Assembly (NCBI GenBank): GCA_964444045.1 | Contig: CAYUFQ010000001.1 | Location: 1 to 48,697 of the forward strand | DNA length: 48,697 nt | Origin: an uncultured Bacteroides sp. | GTDB taxonomy: Bacteria > Bacteroidota > Bacteroidia > Bacteroidales > Muribaculaceae | Reading direction: 5' to 3' | Shown: positions 3,805 through 48,697 of the stretch, piece after piece | How the letters are laid out: each line of letters opens with the position of its first letter | How positions within the stretch are numbered: position 1 is the stretch's first letter | Notes under the pieces: model-generated | Told to the model about the DNA's origin: nothing | Seen by the model: only the letters and a program-made list of their open reading frames with translations | The model's database searches: none | Translations under genes and position numbers: made by a program

Positions 3805-4032
3805 TCTTGGCGGGGACGGGCGGAATTTTGGGAAATAAAAATAAATCTGTATATTTGCAAATCGGTAAACTCCTTTGAGATTTTTGCAGACATAATGCAA
3901 GTATTTGACAGACTGCCAATTACCCCCCCCTATGCGCGCGTGAGCAGCGTGCGCAGATAGTCTGTACCCCTAAATTCCGACCTAACCACGGCCGTCCGGG
4001 CATCCGCCCGGGCGCCTTCCGTCATGCCCATA
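3805..4032 (+). repeat. copy 1 of a ~229-bp repeated element (promoter plus structured 5' leader) upstream of the T9SS cargo gene
   Basis: It aligns by hand to 7816-8044 at roughly 85% identity. Shared blocks include cggaattttggg..ataaaaataaat.tgtatatttgc, gacagactgc.aattacccccccctatgcgcg.gtgagcagcgtgcgc and ggccgtccgggcatccgcccggg.gccttccgtcatg.ccata. Confidence 0.85.
3827..3857 (+). promoter_or_regulatory. canonical Bacteroidota promoter (-33 TTTG, 19-nt spacer, -7 TATATTTG) inside repeat copy 1
   Basis: TTTG at 3827-3830 and TATATTTG at 3850-3857. It would give a ~215-nt leader before the ATG at 4078. Confidence 0.6.
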
Positions 4033-4077
4033 TCTCAAAAATTAATAAATAATAATAAAATCACTATCAAATTAGCA

Positions 4078-7749: not shown

Positions 7750-7778
7750 GCAGATAGATTTAGATTGATATGAAAAAG

Positions 7779-7813
7779 AAAGACGGCGGTCCGTGAGGGT
7801 CGCCGTCTTTTTT
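7779..7813 (+). terminator. rho-independent terminator of the T9SS cargo gene
   Basis: A 10-bp stem (aaagacggcg 7779-7788 / cgccgtcttt 7801-7810) with a 12-nt loop, followed by a T-run. Confidence 0.75.
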
Positions 7814-7815
7814 AA

Positions 7816-8044
7816 TCTTGGCGCGGGGCGGGCGGAATTTTGGGGAATAAAAATAAATATGTATATTTGCATATCGGTAAACTCTTTTGGAAATTTTGTA
7901 GAAGCCGTGCAAATGTTTGACAGACTGCTAATTACCCCCCCCTATGCGCGTGTGAGCAGCGTGCGCGGGTAGTCTGTACCCCTAAATTTACGTCTGAATA
8001 TGGCCGTCCGGGCATCCGCCCGGGTGCCTTCCGTCATGTCCATA
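7816..8044 (+). repeat. copy 2 of the ~229-bp promoter/leader element
   Basis: See copy 1. It begins 3 nt after the preceding terminator, so the two cassettes are in tandem. Confidence 0.85.
7839..7869 (+). promoter_or_regulatory. canonical Bacteroidota promoter inside repeat copy 2
   Basis: TTTG at 7839-7842, a 19-nt spacer, then TATATTTG at 7862-7869. The geometry is identical to copy 1. Confidence 0.6.
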
Positions 8045-8134
8045 CTGAAAAAACACATACAATTTTTTTTGACATCAATCTATCTATCAATATTATTGCC
8101 GGAATGACCGCATACAGGTGATAAAGTGAAAAAA

Positions 8135-8199
8135 CAGATTTTAAATTGATATGATGAAAAGACGGCTGTCCGTGATGGATCGCCGTCTGTTTTTTTTTT
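8135..8199 (+). terminator. second copy of the 3' end/terminator segment of the T9SS cassette
   Basis: cagattttaaattgatatgatgaaaagacggctgtccgtgatggatcgccgtctg plus T10 aligns to 7751-7813. The stem is agacggc 8160-8166 / gccgtct 8182-8188, followed by T10 at 8190-8199. Confidence 0.65.
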
Positions 8200-8243
8200 C
8201 ACATTCCGCACGAAATCTACGGTGGGGAGGTGGAGCGGGGGCG

Positions 8244-8251
8244 TAATTTTG
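8244..8251 (+). promoter_or_regulatory. -7 box TAATTTTG upstream of the capsid-like cluster
   Basis: Motif match 36 nt upstream of the ATG at 8288. I saw no clear -33 TTTG. Confidence 0.45.
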
Positions 8252-8287
8252 CAGCGTGTTTTTTAAATAAACCTATAGCAAAGCATT

Positions 8288-8494
8288 ATGGAAAACGAAG
8301 AAGAGAAGAGCCTTGAGCAGCAGCTTGCCGAGGCCGAGGAGCGGGGCTATCGCCGCGGCCTCAATGAGCAGATTGAGCAGAAGATGCATGAGCCGGGAGT
8401 GTGGGAGGGCGCTGAGGCGCCGGCGCCGGCCGAAACGCCACCGGCAGAGTTTCAGATTCTGGGCAATATGCGCGAATCGATATGGGATAGATAA
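8288..8494 (+). CDS. small acidic, predicted helical protein in the position of a phage scaffolding protein
   Basis: 68 aa: MENEEEKSLEQQLAEAEERGYRRGLNEQIEQKM... It is the first gene of the co-oriented cluster. I recognise no family. Confidence 0.5.
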   Translation: MENEEEKSLEQQLAEAEERGYRRGLNEQIEQKMHEPGVWEGAEAPAPAETPPAEFQILGNMRESIWDR

Positions 8495-8539
8495 CTGATT
8501 TATTAACCATTCTTTAATCTTATTTTTTTTTTACACACT

Positions 8540-9763
8540 ATGAGTATCGGAATCACGGGTGAACCGCTTACCACCCTTAATGCAAGCGAGAATGTTCCCG
8601 AACTGTTGCGTAGCGACGTTGACCAGCGCATCACGAAGCTGCGCCCCATGGCCACTCCGGTTGACCAGCTGAGCCGCTATGCGTCGTCGAGGCCGTGTCG
8701 GAGCATGGTGGTGGACTATTATGCCGTGGCCACGCGCCAGGGGCAGACCACAGTGGCCAAATCAGCGGATAATATGGTTGTGAGCGACCCCGCGCGCGGC
8801 TTTTTTGAGATAGAGGTGGCCGACGAGGGGCTTTTTGACCCGTCGGAGACGGTGATTCTGCCCGACAGCCTCACTCCGGCCGGGGAGCCGATGGTGTTTT
8901 ACGTGACGTCGGGCTCGGGGAAGAAGCTGACCCTGCGCGGCATCAACGGCGCCATCGATGCCTCGGGGGCTATGAGGATGGGGGCGGTGAAGGCCGGCGA
9001 CAGAGTGGTGCGCATGGGGCGTGCGGCCGGCGAGCTCGACGTGCAGACCGCCCAGTATGAGGCTCTGCCCGAGAAGAAGCAGAATTACTGCCAGATATTC
9101 AAGGCGCAGATAGAGCAGAGCACTCTGATGCGCGCGGCCAACAAGGAGGTGGGCTGGACCTTTTCGGACCAGGAGGAGGTGGCCATCTACGATATGCGCC
9201 TGAACATGGAGCGGAGCTTCCTCTTCGGCCACCGCACGCGCTTTACCGACCCCGGGAAGAAGAGCGAGATATTCCTTACCGGCGGCATATGGAACCAGGC
9301 GGGCAAGCAGGTTGACTATCCTGCCGGAAAACTGACGGGCGCCGACTGGATAGGGGTGATGAGCGCGGCGTTTACGGGTCATGCCGGCTCGGCGCGCAAG
9401 ATTCTGATAGCGGGCACGGGGCTGATAGAGCAGCTGAGTCTGCTCGACGGCAATCAGCGGGTGATGCTGCCGGGCGACGTGGTGAGCCGCTGGGGTCTGG
9501 ACTTCACCGAGATGCACTCGAAGTTCGGCACTCTCTACGTGATTCACTCCGAGGTGCTCGACAGTTGCGGCCATTCGGCCGACGGCCTGATTATCGACCC
9601 CGAGTATCTTACCAAGTATGTCCACGTGCCATTCTCGGCCAATACGCTCGACCTGCGCAGCTCGGGTCAGCGCAACACGGAGGCAGTGGTGCTCACCGAG
9701 GTGAGCTGCCTGGTGCTCCGTTATCCTGAGGCTCACGTGAGGGTAGTGGCGAGCGGCATATGA
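8540..9763 (+). CDS. phage major capsid protein-like (HK97 fold, DUF5309/SU10-MCP-like pattern)
   Basis: 407 aa. The motifs ITKLRPMATPVDQLSR and EKKQNYCQIFKAQIEQSTLMRAAN...EEVAIYDMRLNMERSFLFG match, from memory, the N-arm and P-domain pattern of this capsid family. The antisense ORF 8762..9736 is Arg/His/Pro-rich shadow. Confidence 0.7.
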   Translation: MSIGITGEPLTTLNASENVPELLRSDVDQRITKLRPMATPVDQLSRYASSRPCRSMVVDYYAVATRQGQTTVAKSADNMVVSDPARGFFEIEVADEGLFDPSETVILPDSLTPAGEPMVFYVTSGSGKKLTLRGINGAIDASGAMRMGAVKAGDRVVRMGRAAGELDVQTAQYEALPEKKQNYCQIFKAQIEQSTLMRAANKEVGWTFSDQEEVAIYDMRLNMERSFLFGHRTRFTDPGKKSEIFLTGGIWNQAGKQVDYPAGKLTGADWIGVMSAAFTGHAGSARKILIAGTGLIEQLSLLDGNQRVMLPGDVVSRWGLDFTEMHSKFGTLYVIHSEVLDSCGHSADGLIIDPEYLTKYVHVPFSANTLDLRSSGQRNTEAVVLTEVSCLVLRYPEAHVRVVASGI

Positions 9764-10278
9764 AGCGAAACCTGACTAAGAGCGCCATGCTGGAGCTCTG
9801 GAAAACGATGCGTGCGGGCGAGCCACTGAGGCTCGACTGCACGCTGACCCGCACGGACGGGGCCGACTATGACCGCGCGCTCGAGGCCGAGATGCGCGCC
9901 TGGTATCTGCATCTGCTCGACTGCGGCGACGAGTCGATGCTCGCGCCGATAGAGATGGGCGCGGCGGCCGAGGTGAGCCCCGGCGCCACGGGGCTTGCCG
10001 TGGTGAGGGCGCCGGAGGGGGTGAGGCGCATATTGCGCATGCGGTTCGAGGGGTGGGATGGGGCGATTGCGCCCGATGCCGACGAGGCCACGGTGCGTGC
10101 CTGCGCGGCCAATCCGTTCTGCCGCCGGCCGCTTGCGGCGCGCATATCGCCCGGAGCGGTCATTGCCTCGGGGGCGTCGGGCCGGCTCGTTGAGCTGACG
10201 TGCGCTATGGATTTCGGCGAGGATAGTTATGTTTTTGACGATAAAGCAATAAAATCGATGATTGATTATGGAGCTTAG
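9760..10278 (+). CDS. hypothetical protein of the capsid-like cluster
   Basis: 172 aa. The ATG at 9760 overlaps the capsid gene stop (ATGA), which suggests translational coupling. I recognise no family. Confidence 0.55.
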   Translation: MKRNLTKSAMLELWKTMRAGEPLRLDCTLTRTDGADYDRALEAEMRAWYLHLLDCGDESMLAPIEMGAAAEVSPGATGLAVVRAPEGVRRILRMRFEGWDGAIAPDADEATVRACAANPFCRRPLAARISPGAVIASGASGRLVELTCAMDFGEDSYVFDDKAIKSMIDYGA

Positions 10279-11590
10279 AACTGATATATTGCAGGCGGCC
10301 GGCGATAAGTATGACCGGCTGGCCGGGTTCAGGGCTGCCCGGCGGCGCTTCAAGGAGTTTACGTATGGCAAGCAGTGGGGCGACGTTGTCACCACCCCCT
10401 CGGGCGAGCGCATGACCGAGGGGGAACTGGCCTCGAAGAGCGGCCGCATGCCGCTGACCAACAATATGATAAACCGGCTGGTGAAGACCATAGTGGGGCA
10501 CTTTCGCAGTAGCGGCGGCTCTGATGATAAGGCTGACCCCAACCGGCTCGGCGAACTCGACGCGAGGCTGTTTGAGGAATATCTGGTCAGCGGGTGTGCG
10601 GTGCAGCGGGTGAGCGTGGAGCGGCGCCCGGGGGCGTCGGGTACCCTGTGGGTCGACAATGTGAGCGCCGACAGGTTTTTCTGCAGCGAGATACGCGACC
10701 CCCGCAGCCTTGACGCGGAGCTGGTGGGGATGTATCACGACTGGTCGTTGCCCGAAACGATAGGGCGCTTTGCCGGCGGGTCGAGGGCCCGGGCCGGGGA
10801 GATCAGGCGGGCATATGCCGGAACGGCTGAAAACGGAGGGCGCTGCCGGGTGGCTGAGGTGTGGACTCTTGAGGCCGCCGAGCAGCTGCGCTGTCACGAC
10901 CCGTTGACGGCGAGCCTATATTGCGTGGCGGCCAACCGCGAAGGGGAGATTGCGGCAATGAACCGCCGGCGTGCAAAGCGCGGTCAGCCTCGCGTGCAGA
11001 CGCGCTATGAGTACGTTACCTCATGGTGCGGACGGTTTCTGACTCCTCACGGGCATGTGCTGGCCGAGCAGACGGCGCCGACGCATCCGTTTGCGGTTAA
11101 GTTCTATCCGCTGATCGACGGCGAGATACACCCGTTTGTGGAGGGGCTGATTGATCAGCAGAAGTATATCAACCGACTGATAACGCTGATTGACAACATG
11201 ATGTCGACCTCGGCCAAGGGGGTGCTGCTGTTTCCGGAAGATGAGATATGCGACCAGCTGAGCTGGGCCGACATACGCGCCATGTGGGCGAGCTACGACG
11301 GGGTGATTCCCTATAATCCGCGGCCGGGTTCGCCTGGGCCGCATCAGGTGGTTACGAATCCGGCCACGGGGGGAGCCTACGAGCTGGTGAATCTGGAGAT
11401 GAAGCTGTTTGAGCAGGCGGCCGGAGTGAGCGAGTCGCTTCAGGGTCGGCTCAATGCGGCCACGGGCAATTCGGCCACGCTGTTTGACGCTCAGACGCGC
11501 GCCTCGATGGCGTCGCTTGCCGATATCTTCGGCAGCTTCAACGACTTCATTGCCCGGCGCGACGCCCTGCTCGCGGCGCGAACGCGGTGA
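10268..11590 (+). CDS. phage portal protein-like
   Basis: The ATG at 10268 overlaps the upstream gene by 11 nt; the track start at 10262 is a TTG. An N-terminal FTYGKQWGD and a core GLIDQQKYINRLITLIDNMMSTSAKGVLLFPEDEI resemble P22 gp1 landmarks ([43 protein letters not shown]). Confidence 0.6.
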   Translation: MELRTDILQAAGDKYDRLAGFRAARRRFKEFTYGKQWGDVVTTPSGERMTEGELASKSGRMPLTNNMINRLVKTIVGHFRSSGGSDDKADPNRLGELDARLFEEYLVSGCAVQRVSVERRPGASGTLWVDNVSADRFFCSEIRDPRSLDAELVGMYHDWSLPETIGRFAGGSRARAGEIRRAYAGTAENGGRCRVAEVWTLEAAEQLRCHDPLTASLYCVAANREGEIAAMNRRRAKRGQPRVQTRYEYVTSWCGRFLTPHGHVLAEQTAPTHPFAVKFYPLIDGEIHPFVEGLIDQQKYINRLITLIDNMMSTSAKGVLLFPEDEICDQLSWADIRAMWASYDGVIPYNPRPGSPGPHQVVTNPATGGAYELVNLEMKLFEQAAGVSESLQGRLNAATGNSATLFDAQTRASMASLADIFGSFNDFIARRDALLAARTR

Positions 11591-11597
11591 GGGGGGT

Positions 11598-11689
11598 GAA
11601 TTATGAATTATCAATTATGAATTATCAATTTTTTTCTTCACTCAATCCATAATTCATAATTGATAATTCATAATTTATAATTGATAATT
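11598..11689. repeat. AT-rich inverted array of heptamer repeats, likely a bidirectional terminator hairpin between convergent genes
   Basis: A perfect 25-bp inverted repeat: aattatgaattatcaattatgaatt at 11599-11623 and aattcataattgataattcataatt at 11651-11675. Both arms are tandem 7-mers (AATTATN / ATAATTN), so several pairing registers are possible. Confidence 0.8.
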
Positions 11690-24673: not shown

Positions 24674-25993
24674 ATGCTGTACAGAAAAATAGAATCGTCT
24701 ATACGCGAATACCTGCAAGGCCCACGAAACAGGGTGCTTGTAGTGCAGGGCGCGCGTCAGATTGGCAAGTCGTATATAATACGTCATGTTGCGTCGCAGC
24801 TTTTCCCTAACTATATAGAACTGAACCTCGTTGAGGATAAGGAGGGTAATCGTCAGTTTGCCGGAGTTCACACGGTTGAAGATTTTTATCTGAGGCTGAG
24901 TTTGGTCGCCGGTGATAAAATGACCGGAGATCGTGAGAATACTGTTGTGTTTCTCGATGAAATTCAGGAGTATCCGCAGCTGCTTACTCTGTTGAAGTTT
25001 CTGAACGCCGACGGCCGGTTTACGTATGTGGCTTCGGGTTCGCTGCTTGGTATCGTGTTGCGCTCCACCACCTCCATCCCGGTTGGGAGTTTGCGCATAA
25101 TGGATATGTATCCGCTTGATTTCGCTGAATTTATGCGGGCTAATTCTGTGGGGGAGTTCGCTATTGACGTTTTGCGCGATAAGTTCCGTCGGGGTGAGAC
25201 TCTTGACGAGGCGATGCACGCCCGTTTGCTTTCGCTTTGGAAAAAATATCTGCTTGTGGGTGGTCTGCCTGACGCTGTCAATGCATATGTCGAAACGAAC
25301 AATATCGTTGAGGTGCGTAACATTCAGCATGATATAATAAGGCTTTACGCAGCCGATGCTTCAAAGTATGATGAAGAGCACAGGCTGGTGATAAAGCGGG
25401 TCTACGACCTCATTCCTTCCAACATGGAAAACAAACTGAAAAGGGTGGTTTTGCGCGATATCGAGAACAAGGTGGGCGTGCGTTATGCCAGCTATATGGA
25501 GGAATTTGAATATCTGATATCATCCGGTATCGCTTTAGAGGTCATGGCCGTAAGCAATCCAAAGTATCCCCTGTCGGAAAGCATGACAAAGAATCTGCTC
25601 AAACTCTATCTTAACGATCCGGGACTGCTGAGCGCAATACTTTATGGCCGCGATGCGCAGGCGGTTCTTGATGACAAGCTGTCGGTAAATCTTGGTTCGC
25701 TTTATGAGAGCGGTGTGGCGGCGCAGCTCAAGGCTTTAGGATATAGGCTGTTCTATTACGACAATAAGAAAAAAGGAGAAGTTGATTTTTTGATAAACGA
25801 CCGGGAGCGTCAGTCAATCCTGCCGTTGGAAATCAAGTCGGGAAAAGACTATAAAGTGCATAGCGCCATAGACAATTTTGTCAATACGCCCGATTATGGC
25901 ATAGAGCGGGCCATTGTGTTTTCCAACAATCGCGAAATCAATCGGATAGGTAAAGTTATTCATTGTCCGATTTATTTCACTCCGTTCCTGTAG
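24674..25993 (+). CDS. AAA+ ATPase with a DUF4143-type C-terminal domain
   Basis: P-loop VVQGARQIGKSY, Walker B VVFLDEIQ, and overall resemblance to the AAA_14/DUF4143 family. GC is visibly lower than in the neighbours. Confidence 0.75.
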   Translation: MLYRKIESSIREYLQGPRNRVLVVQGARQIGKSYIIRHVASQLFPNYIELNLVEDKEGNRQFAGVHTVEDFYLRLSLVAGDKMTGDRENTVVFLDEIQEYPQLLTLLKFLNADGRFTYVASGSLLGIVLRSTTSIPVGSLRIMDMYPLDFAEFMRANSVGEFAIDVLRDKFRRGETLDEAMHARLLSLWKKYLLVGGLPDAVNAYVETNNIVEVRNIQHDIIRLYAADASKYDEEHRLVIKRVYDLIPSNMENKLKRVVLRDIENKVGVRYASYMEEFEYLISSGIALEVMAVSNPKYPLSESMTKNLLKLYLNDPGLLSAILYGRDAQAVLDDKLSVNLGSLYESGVAAQLKALGYRLFYYDNKKKGEVDFLINDRERQSILPLEIKSGKDYKVHSAIDNFVNTPDYGIERAIVFSNNREINRIGKVIHCPIYFTPFL

Positions 25994-44488: not shown

Positions 44489-44534
44489 TACGACGGTTGA
44501 ATTAAGTTAATATATCCCGTCCGATTCTCGGATC

Positions 44535-44565
44535 GATGCCGGCCCCTCAAAGGCCGGCATCTTTT
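44535..44565 (+). terminator. rho-independent terminator of the LRR gene
   Basis: A 10-bp stem (gatgccggcc 44535-44544 / ggccggcatc 44552-44561) followed by TTTT. Confidence 0.8.
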
Positions 44566-45136
44566 GCACATATAGTAGAACGTCGTTATTTTTGTAGAAT
44601 AAATTGCTCACAAGAGCGTCAATCTCAAATATATTTGCTAACTTTGTGCTATCCGATGGAGGAGAAATACCGTCGGAGAAGAAAAGTGTCAAACTTTCTT
44701 TCTCAGCAAGACGAATCGCCAATTCAATAACAGACTGAGATGGAGTGAGATTAGACGCTCTTTCTGTCTTTGTCAAGCCTAACCGGTGGCCTATGATGCT
44801 GCTACTTAGCATAGACAAATTCAGAGGGGCAGTTTATTCTACCCTCATATATCATTCAGTCTGTAGGCTTTGGCGAGCCTGTCTTGCTATGATAGAGGTG
44901 CGATAAATTCCCCTCTTTTCTTGTACCCATATCAAACCGCCGAATTAGGGAGTCAAGAGGCAAAAAACTATAATTAACGTGAAAAGACGGTTATCTATAC
45001 AATTACCACTAATGGCAAAAGTTGGGAAGAAACAAGAGTCCTTTGAGATGGCACAAAGATTACACGTAATATAATAAAATATCAATTGATAACGTTATAT
45101 TTAAATTTAATTTTTTAACTATATGTTTAAAAAACC

Positions 45137-46321
45137 ATGACATTCAAAACCACGCCTAAAAATGTAACAAAGCTTTCCAAATGTGAGATATTTGTTTTTG
45201 GTAGTAATATTTTAGGAGAACATACTGGTGGCGCTTCTCTTACTGCTTATAAAAAATTTGGTGCAGAATGGGGAATAGGCTTTGGACCTACAGGACAATG
45301 TTACGCTATACCAACTATGCAAGGTGATATAGAGTCCATAAGGCCTTATGTAGACAAATTTATAGAGTATGCCAAAACACATCCTAATAATCGTTTTCTT
45401 GTCACTCGTTTAGGATGTGGATATGCCGGATTTTCCGATGATGAAATGGCACCACTGTTCACCGATGCGTTTGATTTGCCAAATGTTCATTTACCTGAAA
45501 AGTGGCGTAATATTATCTTTGCCCCTCGCTTTATGGATGCGTTATTTGGGAGTGTATCTGTTAATAAATCAGTAGAAATTCCTCCTGTCATTACCGAACA
45601 AGACCTGATTCGTCTTTGTGATGAATATAAGTATATAATTGGGGCTGGCATAAAAACTGTCTCAAAACCTCATATTAGAATTCGTTATGTGATTGATAAT
45701 AACCGTTTTGGTTATGCTAACTTCGGTGATTTCTTTTTCTTTGGTGATGACGACCTATATGTATGGACACGAAAAAAAGAATTTGAAGAATACCATAATC
45801 AAGATGTCGTGGAAGGATATTTTAACGATGAATGCACAGGGCGTGGTTTCTGCCATAGAGTGATATTTGCGGGTGTTAAAACTCCGTATTATGATTCCAA
45901 AGGGGAGCCGATCTTCACCGGCGATGTGCTTAAGATACTTACTATCGGTTTTGATGGCAAAAAAGATGTCTCTGATAAAGAATTTGAAGATAGGTCTGAA
46001 ATTCTTGCTTTTGGCACACTTGGCGAAAACACTAAAGATAGTTCAGCTGCCTATTGTTTCCCATTAGATAATCATTGTATAACACCTGAAATGGTAGCCC
46101 GCTGGGAGCGAATCGGAACTGTGTTTTATCAACTTGATCATAACGAAAAGCTAATTCCGATTACAGAAAGATGTTTTGAATTTCAAGACATATATCATAT
46201 GGGCCTTGATAAGGAGAAAAAGAGAATAATGGCGCGATATACTCCTAATTCCGATAAAGAAGTCTGGAAGTATCTTGCATTAGAACTTATTGGGTGCGAG
46301 GAATATAAATGGAGAAAATAA
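45137..46321 (+). CDS. phage-type protein: N-terminal A1S_2505-like (FVFGSN...GxxGG...IPT...GCGYAG) domain fused to a YopX-like C-terminal region
   Basis: 394 aa, AT-rich. The N-terminus EIFVFGSNILGEHTGGASLTAYKKFGAEWG...QCYAIPT...FLVTRLGCGYAGFSDDEMAPLF matches a phage non-structural protein family I recall from memory. The C-terminal YYDSKGEPIFTGDVLKIL...WERIGTVFYQL resembles the YopX pattern. Confidence 0.65.
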   Translation: MTFKTTPKNVTKLSKCEIFVFGSNILGEHTGGASLTAYKKFGAEWGIGFGPTGQCYAIPTMQGDIESIRPYVDKFIEYAKTHPNNRFLVTRLGCGYAGFSDDEMAPLFTDAFDLPNVHLPEKWRNIIFAPRFMDALFGSVSVNKSVEIPPVITEQDLIRLCDEYKYIIGAGIKTVSKPHIRIRYVIDNNRFGYANFGDFFFFGDDDLYVWTRKKEFEEYHNQDVVEGYFNDECTGRGFCHRVIFAGVKTPYYDSKGEPIFTGDVLKILTIGFDGKKDVSDKEFEDRSEILAFGTLGENTKDSSAAYCFPLDNHCITPEMVARWERIGTVFYQLDHNEKLIPITERCFEFQDIYHMGLDKEKKRIMARYTPNSDKEVWKYLALELIGCEEYKWRK

Positions 46322-46353
46322 TTCAAATCTAATTAATTACATAATTAAATCTT

Positions 46354-46893
46354 ATGAATCAATCATCAAAACAATCATTAGGAGCAAGCGGGGAATATGA
46401 GGTAATATCACGTCTTATATTACAAGGTTGGGACGCTTGCATTTCAAATCTGACAAAAAACAATTTCAAGTTAATAGATGTTTTTTGTCATAACCCCGAA
46501 CTAAGCAAATTAGTTGGAATTCAGGTCAAGACTACAACAAAAAACATTTTTCCCATTGGAATGACTATCGGAGATATAAGAAGCGGTAATTGGCATTCCA
46601 AGATTTTAGGCCCATGGATTTTTGTGCAAGTTAAAGGTACAATTACGAAACCAGATTTTAGATTCTTCATTCTTTCGCGTTCTGAAATGATTAAAATGGT
46701 TGAAGTTACGCATGATTGGTACATTAATCAATGGAATCGGACTAAACCTCTATCGGATAGAGGAGTTGTATGTATCTATTTGAAATGGCTGGAAAAAATA
46801 GATGAAAAGGCAAAGTTTAGCGTTCATCCACAATGTATAATTCCTTTAAAAGAATCTGCAGAGAATCAATGGTCAAAACTTTGGGATGACTAA
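46354..46893 (+). CDS. PD-(D/E)xK nuclease-superfamily-like protein
   Basis: 179 aa, starting 32 nt after the upstream gene. GASGEYEVISRLILQGW...KLIDVFCHNP...VGIQVKTT fits an E...D...(Q/E)xK nuclease core, as in Hjc or restriction-endonuclease-like folds. Confidence 0.6.
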   Translation: MNQSSKQSLGASGEYEVISRLILQGWDACISNLTKNNFKLIDVFCHNPELSKLVGIQVKTTTKNIFPIGMTIGDIRSGNWHSKILGPWIFVQVKGTITKPDFRFFILSRSEMIKMVEVTHDWYINQWNRTKPLSDRGVVCIYLKWLEKIDEKAKFSVHPQCIIPLKESAENQWSKLWDD

Positions 46894-46968
46894 TTATTTT
46901 TGCGTATTAAAGCACTGATTTAATTAGGGCATTGAAAAAGTCTTTCTTGGGCTAAGGCATTAAATTAG

Positions 46969-47012
46969 TCGGCATATATTCAGGCAATTGTTTGTATATA
47001 TGCCGATTTTTG
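46969..47012 (+). terminator. rho-independent terminator ending the two-gene island operon
   Basis: An 11-bp perfect stem (tcggcatatat 46969-46979 / atatatgccga 46996-47006) with a 16-nt loop, followed by TTTTT. Confidence 0.8.
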
Positions 47013-47156
47013 TTCTCCCGATATGGGCATAATCTAACGGGTACAAGCCCCGAGTGCGCCCTGATGGTGGGAGATACATAGTGTTACCTCCTACTCGATT
47101 GCGCATTACAGAACGAGAAGTGTATGAGTGATATTTGGATTGTGGAGAAAATGCAC

Positions 47157-47164
47157 TAACTTTG
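47157..47164 (+). promoter_or_regulatory. orphan -7 box TAACTTTG with no convincing downstream gene
   Basis: Motif match. Downstream there is only a weak 88-codon GTG ORF (47128..47394) and a small hairpin (ctttcg/cgaaag). Confidence 0.3.
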
Positions 47165-47419
47165 CAAAAAAGAAAGTACAGCTTTCGATTTTCGAAAGTG
47201 CAACTTTAGAATTTTACGGCAGCGGATTGCATCTGTTTGAAATAACGGCGGCAAGGACTCTCAAACCCGAGTTTACCGCTAATATGAAAGCGGTTTCGGC
47301 TTCAGTGGGCGGAGTCAGGACGTCGACGGTTATATACGATGGAGAGGATTTTCCGCCGCTGGCGGTGAAATTTCGTCATGTTATCGAGGTGTAGTGCAGG
47401 GAATCTGCAAAAAAATTCT

Positions 47420-47427
47420 TATCTTTG
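47420..47427 (+). promoter_or_regulatory. -7 box TATCTTTG upstream of purH
   Basis: It lies 27 nt upstream of the ATG at 47455. Confidence 0.5.
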
Positions 47428-47454
47428 CGGTGTTCTTAAGAATTTACACCATAT

Positions 47455-48697
47455 ATGGCAAACGACATCCGCAAGATTGGCACTGCGCTGATCTCTGTCT
47501 ATCACAAAGATGGACTTGATGAATTATTGGCCTTGCTCCATAAGGCCGGAGTTAAGTTTCTGAGCACCGGCGGCACCCGCTCTTTCATTGAGGGGCTGGG
47601 ATATGAGTGCGACGCCGTTGAAGACCTCACCGGCTATCCGTCGATTCTCGGCGGCCGCGTCAAGACGCTGCATCCCAAGGTGTTCGGCGGTATTCTTAAC
47701 CGCCGCGACAACGAAGGCGACCGAGAGCAGATAGCCAAATACGAAATACCCGGAATTGACCTTGTGATAGTTGACCTCTATCCGTTTGAGGCCACCGTCG
47801 CTTCGGGCGCTTCGGATGCTGATATTATAGAAAAGATTGATATAGGCGGCATTTCGCTCATACGCGGTGCGGCCAAGAACTGGAAAGACGTTGTAATCGT
47901 TGCCTCGAAGGCCCAGTATGCTCCGCTCACCGAGATTATCAAGGCCCAGGGCGCCGAAACCACCGGAGCCCAGCGCCGATGGTTCGCCAAGGAGGCCTTC
48001 GCAGTGAGCAGCCACTACGACAGCGCTATTTTCAACTATTTCGACGGCGATGCCGAGGAGCCCTCGGCCCTGCGGGTGGCCGTTGACGGCATCAAGCCTA
48101 TGCGCTATGGCGAGAATCCTCATCAGCGCGGCTATTTCTTCGGCAATTTCAATGAAATGTTTACCCAGCTTCACGGCAAGGAGATAAGCTATAACAACCT
48201 GCTCGACATCGATGCCGCCGTTAGCCTGATGGCTGACTTTACCGACACTACGTTTGCCGTGCTCAAGCACAACAATGCATGCGGAGTGGCCTCGCGCCCC
48301 ACTGTGGCCGAGGCCTGGCGCGATGCCCTTGCCGGCGACCCCGTCAGCGCCTTTGGCGGTGTGCTCATCACCAACCGCAAGGTCACTGCCGAAGCCGCCA
48401 AGGAGATTAACAGCATCTTCTTCGAGGTGATTATCGCTCCCGGCTATGAGGATGAGGCGCTTGAGGTGCTTAAGAGCAAGAAGAACCGCATCATTCTGGT
48501 GCAGCACGCTCCGGCGGCCGCGACCATGAGCTTCCGTTCGTGTCTGAACGGCGCTTTGGTGCAGGCCCGCGACCTGAAGGTGGAAACCGCGCAGGATCTC
48601 ACTCCGGCCACCAACACCCCCGTAGACCCCTCGCAGATTGAAGACCTGCTGTTTGCCAACAAAATCGTGAAGCACTCCAAGAGCAACGCCATAGTGC
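47455..48697 (+). CDS. purH: bifunctional AICAR transformylase / IMP cyclohydrolase (3' end lies outside the window)
   Basis: I translated this by hand; it is absent from the ORF track because no stop codon falls within the window. MANDIRKIGTALISVYHKDGLDELLALLHKAGVKFLSTGGTRSFIEGLGYECDAVEDLTGYPSILGGRVKTLHPKVFGGIL...KHNNACGVA... is classic PurH, open to the last base. Confidence 0.9.
   Translation, partial: MANDIRKIGTALISVYHKDGLDELLALLHKAGVKFLSTGGTRSFIEGLGYECDAVEDLTGYPSILGGRVKTLHPKVFGGILNRRDNEGDREQIAKYEIPGIDLVIVDLYPFEATVASGASDADIIEKIDIGGISLIRGAAKNWKDVVIVASKAQYAPLTEIIKAQGAETTGAQRRWFAKEAFAVSSHYDSAIFNYFDGDAEEPSALRVAVDGIKPMRYGENPHQRGYFFGNFNEMFTQLHGKEISYNNLLDIDAAVSLMADFTDTTFAVLKHNNACGVASRPTVAEAWRDALAGDPVSAFGGVLITNRKVTAEAAKEINSIFFEVIIAPGYEDEALEVLKSKKNRIILVQHAPAAATMSFRSCLNGALVQARDLKVETAQDLTPATNTPVDPSQIEDLLFANKIVKHSKSNAIV

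Follow-up and report, generated by a model that had tools for sequence, protein, structure and literature searches.

A block of four phage-type genes at positions 8288–11590 of contig CAYUFQ010000001.1 (assembly GCA_964444045.1, an uncultured Bacteroides sp. of the Muribaculaceae) is probably, though not securely, the head operon of a multi-locus, host-regulated particle system that resembles a gene transfer agent (GTA) and stems from an anciently domesticated tailed phage. The stretch of DNA analyzed, hereafter the window, is 48,697 nt long, and all positions are those of its forward strand. A large group of gut Bacteroidales, comprising Muribaculaceae and related uncultured lineages, passes the system on by vertical descent, its genes being scattered over several chromosomal loci. 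As read from the sequences, its parts would be a head (g1, the major capsid protein (MCP), g3 and the portal, joined in many lineages by g5 and g6), the large terminase TerL as packaging motor, and a lysis cassette; co-regulation, particle formation, packaging of host DNA, and release by lysis are likewise predicted, and the genome from which the window comes presumably carries terminase and lysis loci as well. A first-pass annotation of the window had described the block as a domesticated or satellite-type particle-forming module with a minimal gene set of its own. Its idea of domestication is upheld by what follows; the notion of a self-contained set devoid of terminase and lysis genes proved misleading, as relatives reveal a multi-locus system with TerL, g0, g5, g6, and a lysis cassette.

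The head block and its inheritance

The four open reading frames (ORFs) are intact and co-oriented on the forward strand, with the boundaries and overlaps that had been reported for them: g1 (8288–8494, 68 aa), the MCP (8540–9763, 407 aa), g3 (9760–10278, 172 aa), and the portal (10268–11590, 440 aa). The MCP stop and the g3 start overlap as ATGA (9760–9763), and the g3 stop TAG (10276–10278) overlaps the portal ATG (10268) by 11 nt. The proposal that the second gene encodes an HK97-class capsid of the SU10/DUF5309 type is borne out by Pfam PF17236 (SU10_MCP/DUF5309; E 2.9e-48, 165.3 bits against a cutoff of 24.1, residues 15–402), by PHROGs phrog_26635 (4e-80), and by the capsid of Vibrio phage VP1 (9in6), the top match by both sequence profile and Foldseek. 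Its homologues number 2734, many of them on chromosome-sized contigs. The P22-type portal suspected in the fourth gene is supported in the same manner by PF16510 (P22_portal; E 5.6e-15, 55.3 bits against a cutoff of 26.1, profile positions ~148–432 of 594) and phrog_156 (3e-27); its profile weakly matches the solved portal 8jov, and a single-sequence search against the PDB was uninformative. Host portals have a median length of 470 aa compared with 661 aa in phages, the C-terminal ~135–190 residues being consistently missing from the host proteins.

Neither g1 nor g3 has a significant match in Pfam or PHROGs. The acidic character and scaffold position ascribed to g1 are confirmed (17 acidic and 7 basic residues, pI 4.39), it is kept 5' of the MCP in most loci, and its hidden Markov model (HMM) weakly matches the phage ORF directly 5' of the MCP (E 4e-4 to 1e-3), which fits a putative scaffold-position protein shortened to 68 aa from the ~260 aa seen in phages. 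The third gene, previously labeled unknown, can be placed further: its HMM matches the gp13-position ORF, the second gene after the MCP, in ~20 phage loci (E down to 4e-22), so that it belongs to a conserved phage structural family, that of gp13 of phage BS-TP4. The AlphaFold2 (AF2) model of g3 (pLDDT 88.6) consists of three helices and a beta-sandwich, and its best structural match in the PDB is the phicrAss001 tail-barrel chain 7qoj_D (probability 0.99, TM-score 0.43). Matches in BFVD are to structural proteins of crAss-like phages and podoviruses, and entries named 'tail tubular protein A' and 'head to tail adaptor' rank lower; a search of the g3 profile against PDB sequences gave no meaningful match. 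The ring proteins of crAss phages are described as three conserved helices with a beta-sandwich, related to head-tail joining factors (PMC10172136). From the model fold, the structural matches, and this description, g3 is read with moderate confidence as a portal-docking ring or adaptor protein, probably at the head-to-tail junction.

The nearest cultured phages are the Bacteroides phages BF1-TP2, BKO1-TP3, and BS-TP4 (64–68 kb), and phages related to the block infect Bacteroidaceae today (PMC12694917). The likeness, shared by related IMG/VR contigs, extends over much of the system: the gp10-position ORF corresponds to g1, the three phage MCPs are 37% identical to that of the window, gp13 corresponds to g3, the BS-TP4 portal is 33% identical (residues 6–429 aligning to 42–522 of 657), gp9 corresponds to g5, and TerL is 33–40% identical. 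The phages differ in possessing giant proteins, tail genes, a portal of ~660 aa, and the long scaffold-position protein mentioned above, in having portal and terminase upstream and on separate strands, and in lacking the promoter-like motif TCTACGG-N20-GTAAYTTTGC described below.

Conservation was assessed among GTDB species representatives, where 269 loci hold a relative of the MCP; details come from the best 80 of the 269, in which block order was followed by tblastn with the four window proteins, and L-numbers below are labels of the compared loci or contigs. All 80 lie in Bacteroidales metagenome-assembled genomes (MAGs) or isolates, among which Muribaculaceae predominate together with unnamed 'Porphyromonadaceae/Bacteroides sp.' MAGs. 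The order g1-MCP-g3-portal is found with intact ORFs in about 70 of these species-level loci, and identities to the window across the set are 48–77% for the MCP, 39–72% for the portal, 21–60% for g3, and 27–76% for g1. Gene maps show the block standing alone among differing cellular genes in differing lineages; in the closest ones, the neighborhood of the window itself is retained (cca on one side, OstA and SurA on the other). In these syntenic relatives cca, OstA, and SurA are 69–75% identical to their window counterparts, the MCP 73–77%, and the portal 71–72%. The comparison of synteny and of nonsynonymous to synonymous substitution rates (dN/dS) that the first-pass annotation had proposed as a check thus finds the block kept in place, with dN/dS of 0.046 for the MCP, 0.105 for g1, 0.105 for the portal, and 0.193 for g3 when measured against the nearest relative (MCP 95% identical; dS 0.55–0.77). 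In simple neighbor-joining trees with phage sequences, the host MCPs (81), portals (72), and TerLs (25) each form one pure host clade separate from the phages, as predicted by one ancient domestication followed by vertical descent. The block is vertically inherited and under purifying selection.

These data bear directly on two other explanations. An ordinary decaying prophage remnant would account for the presence of only four phage genes in the window, but it has almost no credit left: the ORFs are intact in some 70 of 80 species at the low dN/dS just given, the promoter-like motif is kept across relatives whose synonymous sites are saturated, and GC content at third codon positions (GC3) is fully ameliorated (0.77–0.80 in the block, with 0.68 in g1, compared with 0.76–0.83 in housekeeping neighbors), in agreement with the host-like composition judged earlier by eye. 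The second takes the block for a mobile phage satellite or for part of a larger mobile element whose integrase would lie outside the window; it gains something from gene content like the morphogenetic module of capsid-forming satellites and from a few loci catalogued as viral in IMG/VR (e.g., L088). It is nevertheless very improbable, as no integrase, excisionase, replication gene, or att-like repeat was found in the window and no integrase or replication gene in the flanks of the ~80 loci, composition is host-like, the block keeps the same chromosomal position in relatives with flanks equally diverged, it is confined to one host clade without being strain-specific, and its partner genes stand one by one amid core genes such as rpoBC. 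Conservation, synteny, dN/dS, and the single host clades together exclude both explanations for practical purposes, and the satellite-type alternative of the first-pass annotation is dropped accordingly.

Two further observations concern copy number. The MAG RGIG6431 holds two divergent copies of the block (L049, L077), and a second g1-like ORF lies ~2 kb 5' of the first in several Muribaculaceae loci (L042, L044, L048, L049, L059).

Partner genes, promoter-like motif, and putative lysis cassette

As had been claimed, the window contains no phage genes beyond the four, by a Pfam survey and six-frame HMM searches; the latter, run at high sensitivity, also found no remnants of terminase, g5, or g6 in it. 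The partners are met in relatives. A full-length TerL (phrog_2) adjoins the block in about nine loci, among them L016, L017, L019, L024, L045, L066, L074, and L082, and in L017 it lies between rodA and g1. In GCA_023666055.1, a block 73% identical to that of the window is on contig 1 and a solitary TerL is on contig 2, with SusC/D-like genes and a RecD-like helicase as neighbors; four more genomes (L172, L175, L176, L177) have a solitary TerL amid core genes, for example by TamB/Omp85 or by rpoBC. Pairwise identities of TerL, MCP, and portal correlate (Spearman 0.64–0.89), unlinked TerLs included. Host and phage TerLs agree throughout in the P-loop, Walker B, coupling, and nuclease motifs, with RQWG[GC]ST, HLSE, ESTAN, VDVGG, ESN, and HDD..MTRA retained in the host proteins, and the large terminase of the relatives is predicted from these motifs to be catalytically intact. 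In L019, what looked like an ORF lying between the portal and TerL genes is the antisense of a TPR gene and was rejected.

The terminase weighs against a further explanation, in which the block encodes a protein nanocompartment (an encapsulin-like shell with a portal pore) or serves some other non-DNA role of a co-opted capsid. Co-option of HK97-fold shells as encapsulins has occurred repeatedly (10.1101/2025.06.18.659913), and the window has shell-forming genes only and no packaging enzyme. On the other side stand a TerL that co-diverges with the head genes, preserves its ATPase and nuclease motifs, and shares their promoter-like motif, a portal and adaptor kept under selection, a lysis cassette predicted to belong to the same regulon, and the finding that none of the 80 loci has a cargo-type enzyme linked to the block. 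A nanocompartment is therefore considered improbable.

Some of the solitary terminase loci have neighbors worth recording. Defense-type genes lie beside two of them, a YafQ-family toxin gene in L176 and an MvaI/BcnI restriction-modification pair in L177, and the TerL of L177 is directly beside rpoC/rpoB. The orphan TerL of L172 is flanked by genes for melibiase, PNPase, SIS, DMRL synthase, WbqC, and RF-1, the same set that is found 3' of the block in the window (16–43 kb); from this match, the head locus and TerL may once have shared a neighborhood.

Clustering of all ORFs of the 80 loci yielded two more conserved genes, both in Muribaculaceae-type loci: g5 (~130–165 aa), 3' of the portal in 37 loci, and g6 (~160 aa), in 30. 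The former has a homologue in phage gp9, with which a gp9-gp8-TerL operon begins (E down to 8e-27), and by the position of this phage homologue g5 is a candidate small terminase. For g6, no match was found in Pfam, PHROGs, or the phage loci. A longer gene, g0, encodes a cytoplasmic protein of 630–895 aa with no signal peptide and lies directly 5' of g1 or TerL in ~11 loci, being 5' of g1 in L002, L020, L022, L023, and L025, 5' of TerL in L045, L074, and L082, and unlinked in L202 and L267. It has a weak match to phrog_32516 only, with no match in Pfam or the PDB and no counterpart in the phage loci compared. Repeatedly linked to the system and carrying its motif, g0 may encode the tail or nozzle component that is missing, g0 and g6 both being candidates that lack supporting homology.

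The scattered loci are connected by a bipartite promoter-like motif, found on aligning the regions upstream of g1 from 13 loci and of six unlinked TerL genes. It consists of TCTACGG, 20 mostly G-rich bases, and GTAAYTTTGC, with a start codon often within 3–6 nt. In the window it occurs once, at 8216–8251 on the forward strand, compared with 0.00 occurrences expected by chance, and stands 36 nt 5' of the g1 ATG in the form TCTACGG-N20(G-rich)-GTAATTTTG; it ends in the Bacteroidota -7 box TAATTTTG (8244–8251), so that the box seen earlier before g1 is genuine and forms part of a longer conserved element. The two boxes stand at a fixed 22-nt spacing 5' of g1 in 16 loci and also 5' of unlinked TerL genes. 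Over 2.39 Mb the motif occurs 28 times, namely 16 times before g1, nine times before TerL, once before the portal, and twice at one and the same hisS promoter, where the spacer is AT-rich. With a relaxed pattern and a spacer GC of at least 0.65, 22 matches were found in 1.26 Mb of host loci as opposed to 0 in 1.13 Mb of phage loci, and the strict pattern gave three chance-like matches in 2.9 million viral contigs, all three lacking both the G-rich spacer and a start codon next to the motif. A variant of the motif precedes both g0-TerL and g1 in L045. The motif is presumably a promoter read by a host activator or an alternative sigma factor. A sigma-70 promoter scan was also run, but its model does not apply to Bacteroidota promoters and its predictions were disregarded. 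In the lineage of L016, L017, and L191, the portal lies ~190 nt from g3 and has its own copy of the motif, and on one contig of this lineage TerL, g1, and the portal are each preceded by a copy, three in all.

Scanning of metagenome contigs for the motif returned mostly chance matches among those listed, and only the subset with a G-rich spacer was used. Among the listed matches of this subset are a g1 copy of 68 aa that is equal to that of the window over the 50 residues shown, and an unlinked g0 beside LptF/G. A three-gene cassette preceded by the motif is present in at least five contigs at 74–100% identity, a range that indicates at least three species among five of them. Its genes encode a 62-aa membrane protein, a lysozyme that matches Phage_lysozyme (E 2.6e-36) and the endolysin family phrog_7 (6e-47), and a lipoprotein whose C-terminal transmembrane segment gives it the layout of a unimolecular spanin; the whole is predicted to be a holin-endolysin-spanin cassette. 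It is flanked by housekeeping genes (HPPK, Tex, and ProRS), and in divergent copies the letters of the spacer have changed while both boxes and the 22-nt spacing are kept. The lysozyme is 44% identical to the endolysin of L092, a phage-type contig with related TerL, gp9, gp10, MCP, and gp13.

A different arrangement is seen in the short contigs L231, L254, and L283, where TCTACGG-N20-GTAACTTTGC precedes a gene for a 58-aa basic protein, followed by a DUF6291/primosomal-like gene and a fragment of a Zn-finger primase/helicase; in L254 this module adjoins a putative polysaccharide-export (flippase-type) membrane-protein gene, as judged by eye. It could be a domesticated replication module of the regulon, comparable to the run-off replication of BaGTA, or an unrelated element that uses the promoter.

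Proposed particle formation, tails, and known systems

In the mechanism proposed for the GTA-like system, g1 would direct assembly of the capsid around a portal dodecamer once the regulon fires, and the unlinked large terminase would pump DNA into the head, assisted in many lineages by the gp9-like g5. The g3 ring would close or extend the portal vertex, and the holin-endolysin-spanin cassette, under the shared promoter, would lyse the producer cell. As for the tail, it may be present but unrecognized (g0 and g6 being the candidates) or encoded at an unlinked locus; otherwise the particles would be tail-less or rely on borrowed tails.

The last of these options can be developed into an explanation of its own, in which a tail-less, head-only system uses the tails of infecting or resident BS-TP4-like phages and is a domesticated analogue of the capsid-forming phage-inducible chromosomal islands. 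The g3 ring would then dock phage tails, so that the system would either spread the DNA of its host or harm the phage by stealing its tails as a form of defense, or do both. The retained set is indeed one of head and packaging genes (scaffold-like protein, MCP, adaptor, portal, gp9-like protein, TerL) with no recognized tail gene in any locus, purifying selection on the adaptor-like g3 implies that something docks on the portal vertex, related phages infect Bacteroidaceae now (PMC12694917), and two orphan TerL loci adjoin defense-type genes, as mentioned previously. Several points make this explanation unlikely all the same. Absence of the motif from related phages favors host control over phage-triggered expression, while leaving room for the latter; a dedicated lysis cassette under the shared motif suggests autonomous release; host and phage adaptors and portals are only ~25–35% identical, which renders compatibility with phage tails doubtful; and the tail genes may simply be unrecognized (g0, g6) or unlinked.

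The reading of the block as the head operon of a host-regulated, GTA-like system has to be weighed against a number of points that count against it. TerL, g0, g5, g6, and the lysis cassette are all missing from the 48.7-kb window and are seen in relatives or on metagenome contigs. The lysis and g0 contigs are tied to block carriers by the motif, by similarity to the phage lineage, and by co-occurrence in metagenome WFLX01, and not by presence in the same assembled genome. The exact motif is limited to the clade of the window, and most Muribaculaceae-type loci do not match it, with the variant in L045 alone coming close. No tail, nozzle, fiber, or receptor-binding gene was recognized in any locus of the system, and a phage-type replication module that bears the motif is atypical for most GTAs. 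As to the protein models, that of the MCP is poor (pLDDT 58), and only its top match, which agrees with the profile search, was used; the fold match of g3 is moderate (TM-score 0.43–0.58).

Circumstantial evidence comes from virus-like particles (VLPs) of the mouse gut, in which Muribaculaceae supply ~19% of the bacterial DNA carried at baseline, and in which Duncaniella contigs show an unexplained uniform coverage (10.64898/2026.07.08.737213). In its boldest form, the proposal would be that of a viriform across hundreds of gut Bacteroidales species, made up of single-gene and small-operon loci for head, terminase, lysis, and perhaps replication, derived from one ancient phage, controlled by a unique promoter, and producing DNA-filled heads that are tail-less or unconventionally tailed, the first GTA-type element in Bacteroidota; this is put forward tentatively, as a possibility with the odds against it.

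No described system with this gene set was found in the searchable literature, in keeping with the first-pass annotation, and neither was a description of a GTA in Bacteroidota or of a domesticated DUF5309 capsid or portal in Bacteroidales or Muribaculaceae. The known GTAs, or viriforms (RcGTA, BaGTA, CcGTA, VSH-1, Dd1, VTA), are alike in their phage-derived genes, vertical inheritance, and purifying selection, and they have no integration functions, none of which was found here in the window or in the flanks of the ~80 loci; dispersed loci are also known from RcGTA and BaGTA, and host regulation by a signal shared between loci and release through a lysis module of the regulon, both usual in GTAs, are predicted for the present system. 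The present system differs in its independent domestication from a lineage of Bacteroides-infecting phages, with an SU10-type capsid and a P22-type portal, in having no recognized tail genes, and in a dispersal that goes down to single orphan loci such as the solitary TerL. What would be unusual among GTAs is the extreme scattering of the genes, a bipartite promoter of the system's own, and a structural repertoire that seems to be head-only.

The capsid-forming phage-inducible chromosomal islands (cf-PICIs), reportedly described by Alqurainy et al. in 2023, resemble the system in a gene set limited to head and packaging functions (capsid, portal, connector, and terminase) with no tail. The cf-PICIs are mobile and inducible, possess integrase, regulator, and replication modules, and package themselves; the block, in contrast, has no such modules nearby, is syntenic and vertically inherited, and has its partner genes scattered. 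Encapsulins share with it an HK97-class shell protein in a cellular genome with no complete virus. They lack portal, adaptor, and terminase and are linked to cargo, whereas the block has a portal and an adaptor, a TerL within its system, and no linked cargo gene.

The Bacteroidales are dominant in the communities of the mammalian gut, and their rates of gene exchange are high. If the reading is true, hundreds of species would carry a regulon of head, packaging, and lysis genes that is a concrete candidate for the mechanism behind the Muribaculaceae DNA in VLPs, and a head-only architecture with an adaptor ring would differ from every characterized GTA and might use borrowed tails or a new delivery route. 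The motif can be used to enumerate the components of the system and to find its regulator, and the system is open to experiment since at least one cultured carrier exists, such as Muribaculaceae Isolate-002. It is also an example of the extent to which a domesticated virus can be taken apart, with genes placed singly by rpoBC or tRNA synthetase genes and presumably linked in function via a shared promoter.

Surroundings of the block in the window

The flanking genes are cellular by Pfam, comprising TPR, a cca-type PolyA_pol, a 1241-aa surface protein of the F5/8-type-C family, OstA_2, a PPIC rotamase (SurA-like), GH123, and melibiase, and the remainder of the window is cellular as well (RsmB, M13 peptidase, GH2, topoisomerase I, Lgt, and RF-1). 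Of the flanking labels given earlier, cca and the OstA-like and SurA-like genes stand. That of a type IX secretion system cargo protein stands only in part, the sorting domain not being confirmed by Pfam while the C-terminal ~40 residues alone resemble another such tail. Scans of the 48.7-kb window for tRNAs and Rfam families found nothing. An AT-rich, 30-bp perfect hairpin (11596–11678, no strand assigned; -34.8 kcal/mol, z-score -6.2, a fold equalled by 0 of 200 shuffled sequences) separates the stop codons of the portal and the convergent OstA-like gene and is probably a bidirectional terminator.

Upstream of the block, a direct repeat of 229 nt (85% identity; 3813–4041 and 7825–8053) brackets the gene of the 1241-aa surface protein and spans its 5' region, including the first codons. 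The second copy sits between two near-identical terminator-like hairpins (7763–7820 and 8146–8200) in the 540-nt gap 5' of g1. The nearest relative, L169, has one hairpin only and no second copy of the repeat, which suggests a recent duplication or cassette insertion beside the block. Farther away, an AAA_14/DUF4143 ATPase gene (24674–25993) lies in a stretch of locally lower GC (25–26 kb, GC 0.47), and a low-GC island at ~44500–47500 (GC 0.34–0.37, GC3 0.27 compared with ~0.8 elsewhere) is probably recently acquired foreign DNA; its ORFs at 45137–46321 and 46354–46893 have no Pfam match and adjoin an LRR protein gene.

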